Made by a program: the position numbers and the translations under genes | In this document: positions 1,440-6,236 of the stretch, piece by piece | Numbering within the stretch: the first letter of the stretch is position 1 | Layout: the number at the start of each line of letters is the position of its first letter | DNA from: a virus | Taxonomy: Duplodnaviria > Heunggongvirae > Uroviricota > Caudoviricetes | DNA length: 15,394 bases | Virus record (IMG/VR): IMGVR_UViG_2526164633_000052 | Strand: one strand, 5' to 3' | Notes under the pieces: generated by a model | Told to the model about the DNA's origin: nothing | Seen by the model: the letters and a program-made list of their open reading frames with translations, nothing else | The model's database searches: none

Positions 1440-1954
1440 TATCAATGCTATTAGCAGGGAGATATATCACCAGAGTTTAATGTGTGATTTTTTATTTATC
1501 GTCGAACCTGGATTGTTTATCATTGGCCTTAACAAAGTTAACGGCTAATAAGATTATTTCCATCACTTCGTGAGAGCTTCATGCCTTGAGAGGATCTCAA
1601 TTTTCTTTTGCAATGAGACAGGCGCTTCCTGTTGTTATGGTATAGTACCCCGCTATTGAGCCTCCTGAATAGTGATGCTGAATAACATAACCCCATGATA
1701 TATCGATAAAATAATCTCTACATTTGAAAATGCACGGTAATTCTGAAATGCAAAAAATCAACCAAACCAGCGCAATGCCTGAAAAAACTGACGTTCACTG
1801 GAGTGGTCGGTTTAGCGTTGCACCAATGCTCGATAGGATGTACCGTTTTTGAAAAACAACTAGTTATACACTTTGTGGGAGCCTATTGGGAACCTGAAGT
1901 TTTGCTCTTTCTATTCATATCTATTCATAAAGCACCATTTGCTGCCTTATCTGA

Positions 1955-1983
1955 TTGACCAAAAACAACCGCGGTTATAGACT
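1955..1983 (+). promoter_or_regulatory. Candidate sigma70 promoter for the 2037-3027 cassette, followed by a short inverted repeat (ctaag...cttag, about 1997-2015) that could be an autoregulatory operator
   Basis: TTGACC, 17-bp spacer, TAGACT; GAGG ribosome-binding site 5 nt before ATG 2037. Confidence 0.3.
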
Positions 1984-2036
1984 TTGCTCCAAATAGCTAA
2001 GGCTATTGCTTAGTAAGTAAAACAGTTGAGGTTGCC

Positions 2037-2576
2037 ATGAATCCGTTTAACGCCATTACTTTTGCTGCATTGTGCGGGCCTCTGGCTTGTCCTGCTGCTA
2101 TGGCGCAGGAGTTCATCATCCAGCCAGCCCCTGTGATTGCTAAACCTTTTGAGTACTCTCCTTCTGTTGAGGAATTCTCACGCAAAATGGAAGAGGGTAA
2201 GGAGATCTTGCAAAAGTTAACAATTGCAGCAGATGACTACTATATCTGTTTGATTGATCTTAATAGCCAAGATGCTCGCGAGTTTGTTTCCAAAAACGGG
2301 ACAGATACGACAGAGGCATGCGAAATGTTCCTGCGTGCTTTTGAAGAAGAAGTGAAGCGTACAATTGAATCGCCTCTGCCTGAATTTATCAGGTCAGAAC
2401 TGAAGGTTTACTGGCGTCATATTGCTAAAGCTCGCTCATCTGTCACTCGCCTTAACAATTACATAAAGAGCATATTTAAAGAAACTGTTACTTTTAGCGG
2501 GCGCGCGGATCTTGCTGGAATTGCAGCACTAGCTAGTCACACATCAAATAAGCTAAAATCGATGCAATTTCACTAA
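2037..2576 (+). CDS. Hypothetical 179-aa protein, upstream partner of the YafO-like toxin (candidate non-canonical antitoxin); N-terminus hydrophobic and signal-peptide-like
   Basis: Good RBS (GAGG) before ATG 2037; 16-bp gap to downstream toxin ORF; no recognisable HTH/RHH or Phd/YefM features; alternative internal start at Met51 (2187). Confidence 0.5.
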   Translation: MNPFNAITFAALCGPLACPAAMAQEFIIQPAPVIAKPFEYSPSVEEFSRKMEEGKEILQKLTIAADDYYICLIDLNSQDAREFVSKNGTDTTEACEMFLRAFEEEVKRTIESPLPEFIRSELKVYWRHIAKARSSVTRLNNYIKSIFKETVTFSGRADLAGIAALASHTSNKLKSMQFH

Positions 2577-2592
2577 CCGATAGCGGACGACC

Positions 2593-3027
2593 ATGCATCT
2601 AGAAGTCTCTATTAATCCAGAAACTAGAGCTGAATTTTTTGATGAAGTTTTTCTCAAATTCCCGGAGCTAGAGTCTTCTATCATTGATGATTTCAAGAGA
2701 TACAAAGCAACCGGTGAGCTTCCGCATTATTTCGGTAGGGACGTTGCGTATACTCAGCCTTATGGTGCTTTTCGGGCTGGGTTGATGCATATCCATCTTT
2801 GTCTACCGCCAAACAAGTTTCCCGAGAAACTTCCACAACCGGATAGGGTCTGCAAGAAAGGTGATCCTGATAATGATGCTTGTCTTGTGTATGTCCAAGG
2901 TGAGCTTTATGAGAATAAATATTCACTCATTGCTATTATGTATCCCGATGCACATGAAAAAGCAAGAAAACATGATGTGATGAGCTATCTGGCGCGAATT
3001 GCCCAGAATTATAAAGATGAAAACTAA
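2593..3027 (+). CDS. YafO-family type II toxin (ribosome-dependent mRNA interferase family)
   Basis: By-eye alignment to E. coli YafO as recalled: YKxxGxLPxxFGRDxxY, HIHL, LVYxQG, LIAIxxPxxHxxAR motifs in the same order and spacing; 144 aa. Confidence 0.7.
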   Translation: MHLEVSINPETRAEFFDEVFLKFPELESSIIDDFKRYKATGELPHYFGRDVAYTQPYGAFRAGLMHIHLCLPPNKFPEKLPQPDRVCKKGDPDNDACLVYVQGELYENKYSLIAIMYPDAHEKARKHDVMSYLARIAQNYKDEN

Positions 3028-3048
3028 CCCGCCGAAGCGGGTTTTTTG
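3027..3048. terminator. Intrinsic terminator between the convergent toxin gene and the PrtN-like gene
   Basis: Stem acccgc/gcgggt with cgaa loop followed by tttttt on the plus strand; A/T-rich on the other side as well. Confidence 0.55.
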
Positions 3049-3053
3049 TGAGA

Positions 3054-3326
3054 TTAGTTATTTATTTTCCTATTTGTTCTTACCCTCTCCCATTCAATTC
3101 TGCCTTCTTCACGCCGTTTATCTATATATTCAGCAAGATCCTGAATGTTGATGCAGCGCTTTGCTTTCTGTGATGTACCAACACGATAAGTCGGGATCGG
3201 CAACTGGCATGCATTTGCTTTCGCTTCTGCTGTGTTAGGGCTCATACCGAAATACTTTTGGCATACAGCTGACAGCTCAATGTTTGGGGTATTGAATTCA
3301 GCCATCAGTAAAAACAAGGTGTTCAT
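3054..3326 (-). CDS. PrtN-family / excisionase-like small DNA-binding protein
   Basis: Translation from Met at 3326 (MNTLFLLMAEFNTPNIELSAVCQKYFG...) resembles the pyocin-activator PrtN family; GGAG RBS 6 nt upstream of that ATG; the ORF is open further upstream to GTG 3353. Confidence 0.65.
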   Translation of the reverse strand: MNTLFLLMAEFNTPNIELSAVCQKYFGMSPNTAEAKANACQLPIPTYRVGTSQKAKRCINIQDLAEYIDKRREEGRIEWERVRTNRKINN

Positions 3327-3362
3327 AATTTTCTCCATCAAAACCGGCTGCACCCGGGAAAA

Positions 3363-5606: not shown

Positions 5607-6236
5607 TTACTCACCTTCTTTGATGCGAATGCCAGCGGCGCGTGGCACATTAACTTCCACGATGCGCACAGTTGGTTTGTACATCTCAATCGCTGTCAGC
5701 CAGTCAGCGCCGGTCATATGCTTTTCTGCATCGCCATTAGTCCATTGAACCGGCACACCAATAGCTTTCATCGCAATTTCTATTTCCCCGGCAATGGCGC
5801 TTTTCCCGCAACCAGTAAAACCAGAGACAACGACAAGAACTTCGCCTTTGGCTGGTTTTATTTCCCGTGCTTCCAGTTCTGCTATGCGCTTCTCTGCGGC
5901 TTCCAGCTTGGCTTCTGCATCTTTGGCTCGCATCTGCCAGTTGATAGCGATGTCGATAACGCTGTTAGCACAACTGGACTCGTTCTCTTCGGCAGCTTTA
6001 GCTTCAGAAAGCTCATCAAGCAATCCAAGAACAACAGTTGGCGTGGCGAGCGTGATAAAACGCATATTGCTCATATGCTCTTCATCGCTGACCTCATCTC
6101 CAGCCTCGACCGCTGCCATGTGCTGAACATAGCCGCTATCACAGGTATTCCAGATTGCCCCTGCCTCGTAACCCCATTCACCATGTAGTGCTTTTTCTGC
6201 CGCCTCACGCAGTGCCTGGTAATTAATTTCGCTCAC
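5607..6236 (-). CDS. Coiled-coil early protein, probably an Ea22-like mosaic-family member (from memory, unverified)
   Basis: GTG start with AGGAGG RBS; N-terminus SEINYQALREAAEKA and central KRIAELE coiled coil; overlaps the stop of the upstream gene. Confidence 0.6.
   Translation of the reverse strand: MSEINYQALREAAEKALHGEWGYEAGAIWNTCDSGYVQHMAAVEAGDEVSDEEHMSNMRFITLATPTVVLGLLDELSEAKAAEENESSCANSVIDIAINWQMRAKDAEAKLEAAEKRIAELEAREIKPAKGEVLVVVSGFTGCGKSAIAGEIEIAMKAIGVPVQWTNGDAEKHMTGADWLTAIEMYKPTVRIVEVNVPRAAGIRIKEGE

Follow-up and report, generated by a model that had tools for sequence, protein, structure and literature searches.

A two-gene cassette at the left end of a dusA-integrating prophage

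The DNA analyzed here (the window; 15,394 nucleotides of the Caudoviricetes record IMGVR_UViG_2526164633_000052 from IMG/VR) contains a compact cassette of two genes on the plus strand. The upstream gene, 2037-2576 (179 amino acids, ATG start), is referred to as the partner gene. The downstream gene, 2593-3027 (144 amino acids, ATG start), encodes a YafO-family toxin and follows after a gap of 16 nt. An earlier reading made from the sequence alone (the sequence-only reading) had proposed these two open reading frames (ORFs), and their coordinates were confirmed. The window is chromosomal DNA of Escherichia coli. Copies of the region 1700-3300 that are identical or 99.9% identical occur in complete E. 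coli genomes, where they are flanked by zur-yjbM and a lambdoid prophage; 2037-2576 is annotated there as a "hypothetical protein" and 2593-3027 as a "type II toxin-antitoxin system YafO family toxin". In total, 49 of 5,426 complete E. coli genomes carry the cassette.

A displaced 5' fragment of dusA (about 1730-1834, plus strand) marks the left attachment site (attL) junction of a dusA-integrating lambdoid prophage, as indicated by the partial tRNA-dihydrouridine synthase that RefSeq annotates in the identical locus and by alignment of the end of phage PhiR40_1. PhiR40_1 (from ECOR13) and PhiR55_1 are temperate phages that have been induced; in the alignment, their deposited genomes start at window position 1816 and carry both cassette genes at the left end (positions 222-1212 of PhiR40_1), whereas the integrase gene is on the far right. 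Hence the cassette belongs to the phage genome and lies 220 bp inside attL, at the attL-proximal end of the phage. It had been described before as low-GC cargo between IS1 and the prophage; the low guanine–cytosine (GC) content is correct (0.41-0.45 vs. 0.49-0.51 in the neighboring prophage genes), whereas the location has to be revised, since the PhiR40_1 genome already starts at 1816.

The downstream gene encodes a YafO-family toxin of a distinct subfamily

The product of 2593-3027 is a predicted RelE/HigB-fold endoribonuclease without a signal sequence. It matched the Pfam family YafO_toxin (PF13957) with 76.5 bits (cut-off 25; E = 1.9e-21) over profile positions 1-100 of 101, and shares 36% identity with YafO of E. 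coli K-12 over 117 residues. The motif set that had been read from the sequence, i.e., F47-G48-R49-D50, H66-I67-H68-L69, L98-V99-Y100-x-Q-G103, L112-I-A-I115, P118, and H121, falls on invariant or near-invariant columns of the family (F47, G48, D50, H66, I67, H68, L98, V99, Y100, G103, L112, A114, P118, and H121). The protein also has a RelE/HigB fold according to a RelE/ParE-superfamily (BECR) fold test; its YafO-family membership is genuine. With 75.8 bits it stayed below the cut-off of 153 of the NCBIfam equivalog PRK09885, which speaks against orthology with K-12 YafO. By these profile scores, the toxin falls within the YafO family, in a distinct subfamily (PHROG 1651), and is no orthologue of K-12 YafO.

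The catalytic-type residues, including the invariant His, Arg, and Tyr, are kept, and strong purifying selection acts on the protein, which appears to be a catalytically intact, cytoplasmic toxin. Its homologues frequently start with GTG behind a weak ribosome-binding site (Shine–Dalgarno sequence), which suggests that toxin translation is coupled to, and lower than, translation of the partner.

The partner belongs to a small, unannotated family of helical proteins

The only match of the partner was the unannotated PHROG 8416; no match was found in Pfam, NCBIfam, PADLOC, or the PDB sequences (against the defence models of PADLOC-DB v2, the toxin had no match and the partner one at chance level, 0.017). 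In agreement with the sequence-only reading, the partner is not YafN/Phd-like (BLASTP against K-12 YafN, E = 1.7; no PhdYeFM match in Pfam), and a Pfam/NCBIfam search of 19 members of its family revealed no helix-turn-helix (HTH), ribbon-helix-helix (RHH), AbrB, Phd/YefM, or other DNA-binding domain. The family is small: it forms 41 clusters at 90% identity, and a set of 1.84 billion proteins contained 49 representatives at 50% identity. Its members comprise 145-205 amino acids, mostly 163-196, leaving aside a few fragments and two longer outliers. The AlphaFold model (predicted local distance difference test score, pLDDT, 78.9) consists of a lone helix (residues 6-24) in the signal-like segment, a disordered linker, and a five-helix bundle (residues 44-174), in which three helices are 21-31 residues long. 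Fold searches with this model returned solely generic helical-bundle matches.

Family-wide, the C-terminal third (residues 116-179) is the best kept region and includes the motifs AKAR..TRLN and F-E-S-x-I-D..L..LA.(Y/H)(T/S)T. The extreme C-terminus (window 2562-2576) reads ...MQFH-stop, with His179 invariant in the enterobacterial group, and a terminal S-G-x-F-H or x-x-F-H is kept in several deeply diverged subfamilies (P0100-P0116; gp17 of phage HK639, L149:1920-2492). Antitoxins usually evolve faster than their toxins, and the partner, with a mean pairwise non-synonymous difference (pN) of 0.32 compared to 0.19 for the toxin, evolves faster as well; synonymous sites are near saturation, so that comparisons of non-synonymous and synonymous (pS) rates are qualitative only.

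The alternative start at Met51 considered in the sequence-only reading was rejected: the column holds L, I, or V in most homologues and lacks a Shine–Dalgarno sequence. Met1, in turn, is preceded by GAGG(T) at 2028-2031 (plus strand, read from the sequence), and GAGGT is found 5-6 nt ahead of Met1 in all enterobacterial loci inspected.

YafM of K-12 is presumably an unrelated protein of the transposase-like type associated with repetitive extragenic palindromic sequences. The label "YafM antitoxin", which the depositors of PhiR40_1 (GenBank PV340560.1, 222-761) and likewise of PhiR55_1 gave to the partner, appears to be an unsupported naming guess. As a possible remote relative, we considered a 205-residue protein of the Klebsiella phage-plasmid pJN2-26 (L151:1374-1991), which is encoded upstream of a 31%-identical YafO homologue, contains an RGLEG motif, and ends in FSFH. 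The comparisons did not suffice to establish that it is homologous to the partner (BLAST 4e-4 over 37 residues; hhalign probability 10%).

Partner and toxin genes are strictly paired in about seven genomic positions

Starting from the partner, a YafO-family gene was found directly downstream in every locus with enough sequence (57 loci, 24 distinct pairs). Starting from the toxin, the upstream ORF of all 41 IMG/VR loci (toxin identity down to about 50%; 32 distinct upstream proteins) encoded about 180 amino acids, matched the partner profile, and passed the signal test described below. The pairing extends to remote partner homologues with less than 20% identity and to phages HK639 and YMC11/02/R656. 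In both searches, the intergenic gaps ranged from -4 to +35 nt, most being ≤ 20 nt, and the gene order was always partner, then toxin. In none of the contexts examined is the pair joined by a further conserved gene or by a known RNA (Rfam).

The cassette occurs in prophages of Escherichia, Pantoea, Serratia, Yersinia, Photorhabdus, Gilliamella, and Pseudomonas, and occupies about seven different positions in different phages. It is located next to attL and a PrtN-like gene in E. coli and Phytobacter, between the tail chaperone and tape measure genes in Serratia, Pantoea, and Klebsiella, alongside a ParDE pair within the tail cluster of a myovirus in Yersinia, among baseplate genes in Photorhabdus, and between tail-fibre and lysis genes in Gilliamella. 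Further positions are near a CI-like repressor gene, either directly after it (metagenomic contig) or two genes downstream (Pseudomonas phage YMC11/02/R656), and between tape measure/lipoprotein and minor tail genes (gp17/gp18 of phage HK639). Because the genes are always adjacent across about seven positions, this is the behavior of a mobile cargo unit whose two genes appear to be mutually dependent. The features that define a prophage moron were all found, i.e., its own promoter-like site and terminator, an atypical GC content, and a variable position. As to the features of toxin–antitoxin (TA) systems of type II, the genes are adjacent, co-directional, and jointly conserved, and an antitoxin with a DNA-binding domain (HTH, RHH, AbrB, or Phd/YefM) is missing.

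A side observation concerns a prophage of Yersinia mollaretii (L060:2328-3176), in which a ParD-ParE pair and an extra ParD fragment lie immediately upstream of the cassette in the same tail-cluster gap. This suggests that the gap is a hotspot collecting toxin–antitoxin or defence cargo.

The partner N-terminus has the properties of a Sec-type export signal

The partner starts with a signal-peptide-like segment, MNPFNAITFAALCGPLACPAAMA (2037-2105, plus strand), with a predicted signal peptidase I site (A-M-A/Q-E) after residue 23. Its layout is MNPFN, followed by AITFAALCGPLAC and PAAMA, the predicted cut, and QEF. The segment comprises 24 uncharged residues, reaches a mean hydropathy of 1.9 in the best 10-residue window, and has small residues at -3 and -1; after cleavage as predicted, the mature part would start acidic. 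All elements of a Sec signal for signal peptidase I are thus present (a short N-region, an uncharged hydrophobic core with a length of ≥ 10 residues, a small amino acid at both -3 and -1, and an acidic or neutral mature start). Other subfamilies have the textbook layout with unrelated sequence, i.e., a K/R start, 10-15 uncharged hydrophobic residues, and then P-x-x-A-x-A or S-x-A. Examples are MNLSLRSCLAVVLFGGVLSVPSFSA with the predicted cut before G in Photorhabdus, MANHSVINSAILAALFAFSSQA with the predicted cut before DE in Gilliamella, and, in further subfamilies, MKTTLSICAAALSMALSSPNVLA and MKKQMKNQSKASGALMASLLALAMGMTASTLATVQA with predicted cuts before RE and S, respectively.

For a family-wide comparison, we applied a signal test that requires an uncharged 10-residue window with a mean hydropathy of ≥ 1.6, starting within the first 35 residues, and a -3/-1 site. 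The resemblance of the partner N-terminus to a Sec signal, already noticed in the single sequence, held across the whole family: 74 of 79 partner-family members passed, compared to none of 43 toxins. As a control, 7 of 54 PhiR40_1 genes passed, mostly genuine envelope proteins; these include the partner, a lipoprotein, the signal-anchor-release (SAR) endolysin, Rz, and Lom. Moreover, 36 of 39 partner representatives show an N-in (C-out) charge bias. Based on the test outcome, the envelope-protein control, and the charge bias, targeting to the membrane or periplasm is very probably a conserved property of the partner family. Reading of the sequences revealed no canonical lipobox (L-[AS]-[GA]-C) ahead of Cys13 or Cys18 of the partner and, as for a twin-arginine motif (S/T-R-R-x-F-L-K), no RR in partner sequences except in a single remote member, whose N-terminus is probably over-extended.

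In the enterobacterial subfamily, the best conserved part of the partner is residues 1-24 (window 2037-2108), with a pN of 0.14 compared to 0.32-0.43 elsewhere in the protein and 0.19 in the toxin. Conservation at the DNA level was rejected as the cause, as codons 1-33 differ between loci by 5-14 synonymous changes (pS 0.59). Since synonymous differences stay high, the constraint, as estimated from these alignments, is on the peptide and not on the DNA. Two points, both drawn from sequence comparison, go beyond the sequence-only reading: the pair is a widespread conserved module, and the signal-like segment is more tightly constrained than the remainder of the partner.

Putative control elements around the cassette

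The candidate promoter with an inverted repeat and the terminator that had been proposed for the cassette were located. A candidate sigma-70 promoter, TTGACC-17 nt-TAGACT (1955-1983, plus strand), was found in a consensus scan with 9 of 12 matches; promoter-like matches in the region are in no excess over chance (2 observed vs. 3.6 expected). The candidate is kept in position at related loci, with the same hexamers and spacing in Phytobacter and similar hexamers (TTGCTC/TTGCCC, 17-18 nt, TAAACT/TAGACT) in Enterobacter and Pantoea. Its spacer holds the palindrome AACCGCGGTT (1967-1976), and the inverted repeat AATAGC-taag-GCTATT (1992-2007, plus strand), directly after the -10 hexamer, is either an operator-like element or a 5'-terminal mRNA hairpin, as far as its sequence suggests.

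At a distance of 42-49 nt ahead of the partner ATG, the loci of E. coli, Phytobacter, Enterobacter, Pantoea, and the very distant Gilliamella (including L006, L011, L016, L038, L046, and L049) share a palindrome of the form ATA(G/A)C-N4-G(C/T)TAT, which is absent from those of Serratia, Yersinia, and Photorhabdus. In Phytobacter, the promoter spacer contains a second copy; copies in locus L002 lie at about 5926-5939 and 5954-5967. An origin of these palindromes as attachment (att) site elements was ruled out, as they accompany the cassette far from att sites in Pantoea and Gilliamella.

Downstream of the toxin gene, an intrinsic-terminator-like hairpin, AACCCGCCGAAGCGGGTT followed by TTTTTGTG (3026-3043), combines a 7-bp stem with five G-C pairs, a 4-nt loop, and a T-run on the plus strand. 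In and near the cassette, no Rfam match reached the gathering score; the lone weak match, at the terminator, was to isrK (E = 0.22). The presence of a known small RNA or an RNA antitoxin in or near the cassette is hence not supported.

A possible toxin–antitoxin-like module with a Sec-targeted neutralizer

Judged by these comparisons, the cassette is a conserved, self-contained two-gene cargo "moron" of temperate phages, in which a YafO-family toxin is combined with a helical protein (about 18 kDa) that represents an undescribed family and is predicted to be made with an N-terminal Sec-type signal sequence. As no other conserved gene or known RNA accompanies the toxin, the partner is the sole candidate neutralizer. 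The gene order, the short gaps, the GTG start with a weak Shine–Dalgarno sequence, and the faster evolution of the partner match antitoxin–toxin operons. A cytoplasmic, protease-labile antitoxin is nevertheless doubtful, because the sequence features of the partner predict export.

We favor a non-canonical TA or abortive-infection module in which neutralization takes place at the precursor stage and the neutralizer is cleared by Sec export, and assign this specific mechanism a probability of roughly 0.4. Partner and toxin would be made from one mRNA, with toxin translation being coupled and lower. The cytoplasmic partner precursor would bind and neutralize the toxin via its C-terminal half, which is conserved family-wide. 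Unbound partner would be cleared by Sec export, in place of or besides proteolysis by Lon/Clp, leaving no cytoplasmic reserve of neutralizer. Once synthesis stops, either by phage-induced host shut-off or by loss of the prophage, the RNase would be freed and arrest translation. For this scheme, we infer toxicity, neutralization, the binding region, export, and the trigger. The looser claim of a TA-like module with a Sec-targeted neutralizer has slightly better than even odds. We regard it as rather unlikely that the export or envelope state, instead of proteolysis, sets the free antitoxin of a cytoplasmic RNase toxin, with the neutralizer being a Sec substrate. The conserved signal segment might have a second, sequence-specific role, e.g., in toxin binding or as a short-lived signal-peptide fragment. 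The strict co-occurrence in prophage cargo positions is consistent with either of the functions that the sequence-only reading had suggested, a new antitoxin type for YafO or phage exclusion.

Several points weigh against precursor-stage neutralization with clearance by export. An exported protein cannot hold a cytoplasmic toxin, so that a precursor-stage complex is required. In the literature searched, nothing is described on an antitoxin with a signal peptide, a periplasmic antitoxin, or the partner family. Furthermore, the signal test is a heuristic of our own and not SignalP, the E. coli partner has no Lys/Arg ahead of its hydrophobic core, and the HK639-type subgroup has a short, weakly hydrophobic core, with three members failing the test. 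The 205-residue protein of pJN2-26 has no signal-like N-terminus. No DNA-binding domain that could account for the operator-like palindromes was found in the cassette proteins. Finally, ordinary signal peptides evolve fast, and the strong conservation of residues 1-24 therefore needs an extra explanation that a simple export signal does not provide.

The constrained N-terminus is also central to the best of the alternative explanations, to which we give perhaps one chance in five. The partner would be directed to the inner membrane by its N-terminal segment, which would either be cleaved, giving a periplasmic protein, or stay uncleaved as an N-in signal anchor, and the periplasmic helical domain would detect phage attack (e.g., tail tip, DNA entry) or envelope damage; the conserved N-terminal tail and helix would keep the toxin at the membrane and release it on sensing. 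A helical domain predicted outside the cytoplasm, prophage cargo positions typical of exclusion genes, and residues 1-24, whose constraint in the enterobacterial subfamily fits a specific protein-contact helix better than a plain signal, all agree with such a sensor. Membrane-associated RelE-superfamily modules have, moreover, been proposed as sensors of DNA passage (ToxM/ToxR, PMC11980606). However, the part facing the cytoplasm would comprise just about five residues and thus offer little for retaining a toxin of 16 kDa, and most partner subfamilies have good A-x-A-type cleavage sites. The N-terminal sequence also differs between subfamilies, though their toxins stay at least 50% identical, and there is no evidence of any sensed ligand.

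If the same constraint is instead attributed to a toxin-binding, oligomerization, or degradation-tag helix, the partner would be an ordinary cytoplasmic type II antitoxin of a new family. This we consider unlikely, and somewhat more so than the envelope sensor. In operon layout and evolutionary rates, the two genes match a classical TA pair, the customary positive charge is absent from the E. coli N-terminus, and the segment is better conserved than signal peptides normally are. The protein of pJN2-26, although its homology is not established, would be a remote relative without such a segment beside a YafO homologue, and the PhiR40_1 depositors named the partner gene an antitoxin. What argues against this explanation is that other subfamilies have segments of unrelated sequence in the textbook signal-peptide layout, that the signal test separates partners from toxins so clearly, and that no DNA-binding domain was found in the partner. 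In addition, the toxin-binding helices of known antitoxins are amphipathic and charged, and do not consist of 20-24 uncharged residues.

The differing compartments predicted for partner and toxin could also mean that two functionally separate genes travel together, namely a secreted periplasmic protein (e.g., for superinfection exclusion or host interaction) and a YafO-like protein that is inactive, weakly expressed, or otherwise controlled. The frequent GTG start and weak ribosome-binding site of the toxin, as well as the lack of resemblance between the partner and any antitoxin, would fit. This is improbable, as independent genes would have parted: adjacency in every locus, recovered from either gene, at partner identities below 20%, in at least seven contexts, and with fixed order and short gaps is hard to reconcile with separate functions, and the toxin is under strong purifying selection and keeps its catalytic-type residues. 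The least probable explanation, with very long odds, is a secretion monitor like SecM, VemP, or MifM, in which the export status of the partner would set ribosome behavior at the end of the ORF and thereby downstream toxin translation, switching the toxin on once Sec is compromised; the N-terminal export signal, the very short gap, the weak toxin start, and the extreme C-terminus (...S-G-x-F-H stop) conserved in several deep subfamilies are in line with it, but no known arrest motif (SecM, VemP, or RAPG/RAPP types) is present, a folded, conserved helical domain of 130 residues would be superfluous for a monitor, and the C-terminal motif is absent from the Pseudomonas-type and Gilliamella-type subfamilies.

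Type II TA biology assumes a cytoplasmic antitoxin that is made unstable by proteases, and toxin release during phage infection is still debated. If precursor-stage neutralization or envelope sensing applies, a conserved phage-borne module would follow a different control principle, with the antitoxin removed by secretion or the envelope being sensed, and a TA or abortive-infection switch would be wired to the secretion machinery. It would also give a function to an unannotated family in active coliphages (PhiR40_1, PhiR55_1, and HK639), Pseudomonas aeruginosa phages, and prophages of insect- and plant-associated enterobacteria. Should the partner turn out to be an ordinary cytoplasmic antitoxin, it would still represent a new antitoxin family for YafO toxins, and the GenBank label "YafM antitoxin" would be corrected. 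The system is small (1 kb), derives from growable E. coli phages, and is open to standard genetics.

Comparison to known systems

The closest known system is the type II TA pair YafN-YafO of E. coli K-12. Its toxin likewise belongs to PF13957 and has the motifs FGRD, HIHL, LVYxQG, and LIAI..P..H..AR in common with the cassette toxin; the order of upstream partner and downstream toxin and the tight spacing are the same. In contrast, the cassette partner is unrelated to YafN, about twice as long, lacks a Phd/YefM or other DNA-binding domain, and has a signal-peptide-like N-terminus. Furthermore, YafN-YafO sits in the SOS-regulated dinB operon, whereas the cassette is carried by phages.

Exclusion or abortive-infection genes known as prophage cargo include lambda RexAB, P22 SieA/SieB, HK97 gp15, and phi80 Cor. 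The cassette resembles them as a small unit with its own (predicted) promoter and terminator, atypical GC content, and variable positions near att and in tail or lysis clusters, and by one component predicted in the envelope. It differs in that it has no sequence relation to them and no PADLOC match.

In toxin–antitoxin–chaperone (TAC) systems, a TA pair of the RelE superfamily (HigB or MqsR type) is linked to protein export by a SecB-like chaperone. There, the third gene encodes the chaperone and the antitoxin is cytoplasmic; the cassette has no conserved third gene in any context and thus does not qualify as a TAC system. TAC systems are mentioned together with ToxM/ToxR, proposed membrane-associated RelE-superfamily modules that would sense envelope events (Gerdes, mBio 2025, PMC11980606). 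As in ToxM/ToxR, the toxin of the cassette has a RelE fold, and one component of the module is predicted to extend into the periplasm. In ToxM, however, the toxin itself has a transmembrane segment and a periplasmic domain, and the antitoxin is small, cytoplasmic, and of the RHH or HTH type (PMC11980606). The cassette is no ToxM/ToxR module, since its toxin is soluble, and the export signal is on the upstream partner, which has no DNA-binding domain. Literature searches on YafO in NetFlax and on the PhiR40_1 cassette returned nothing relevant, and the accessible part of a Photorhabdus TA survey lists YafO merely as a search family (PMC13617665).

Neighboring features of the attL region

On the host side, the DUF2713 gene yjbM is split by a copy of IS1 (insA and insB, minus strand; 1-770 / 1044-1367 region of the window). 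What is left of yjbM as an ORF codes for its last 107 residues (profile positions 129-235); in other strains, yjbM is frameshifted instead. On the phage side, a gene of the PrtN (pyocin activator) family (3054-3353, minus strand) is convergent with the toxin gene and has the hairpin terminator in common with it. It is the last gene of the leftward early operon of the phage, the usual place of the excisionase gene, with the integrase gene at the opposite end of the genome.

The orphaned dusA promoter and 5' fragment at attL (window 1730-1852) point into the cassette on the same strand, and solely an A+T-rich palindrome, GTTTTTGAAAAAC (about 1845-1857), lies between the fragment and the cassette. 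The host dusA promoter may therefore be an additional source of cassette transcription in the lysogen. Past the att core (about 1826) and ahead of the cassette promoter, TCTATTCATA occurs twice as a perfect tandem direct repeat (1910-1929), of which Phytobacter has a diverged version; the repeat may be an arm-type binding site of the integrase.

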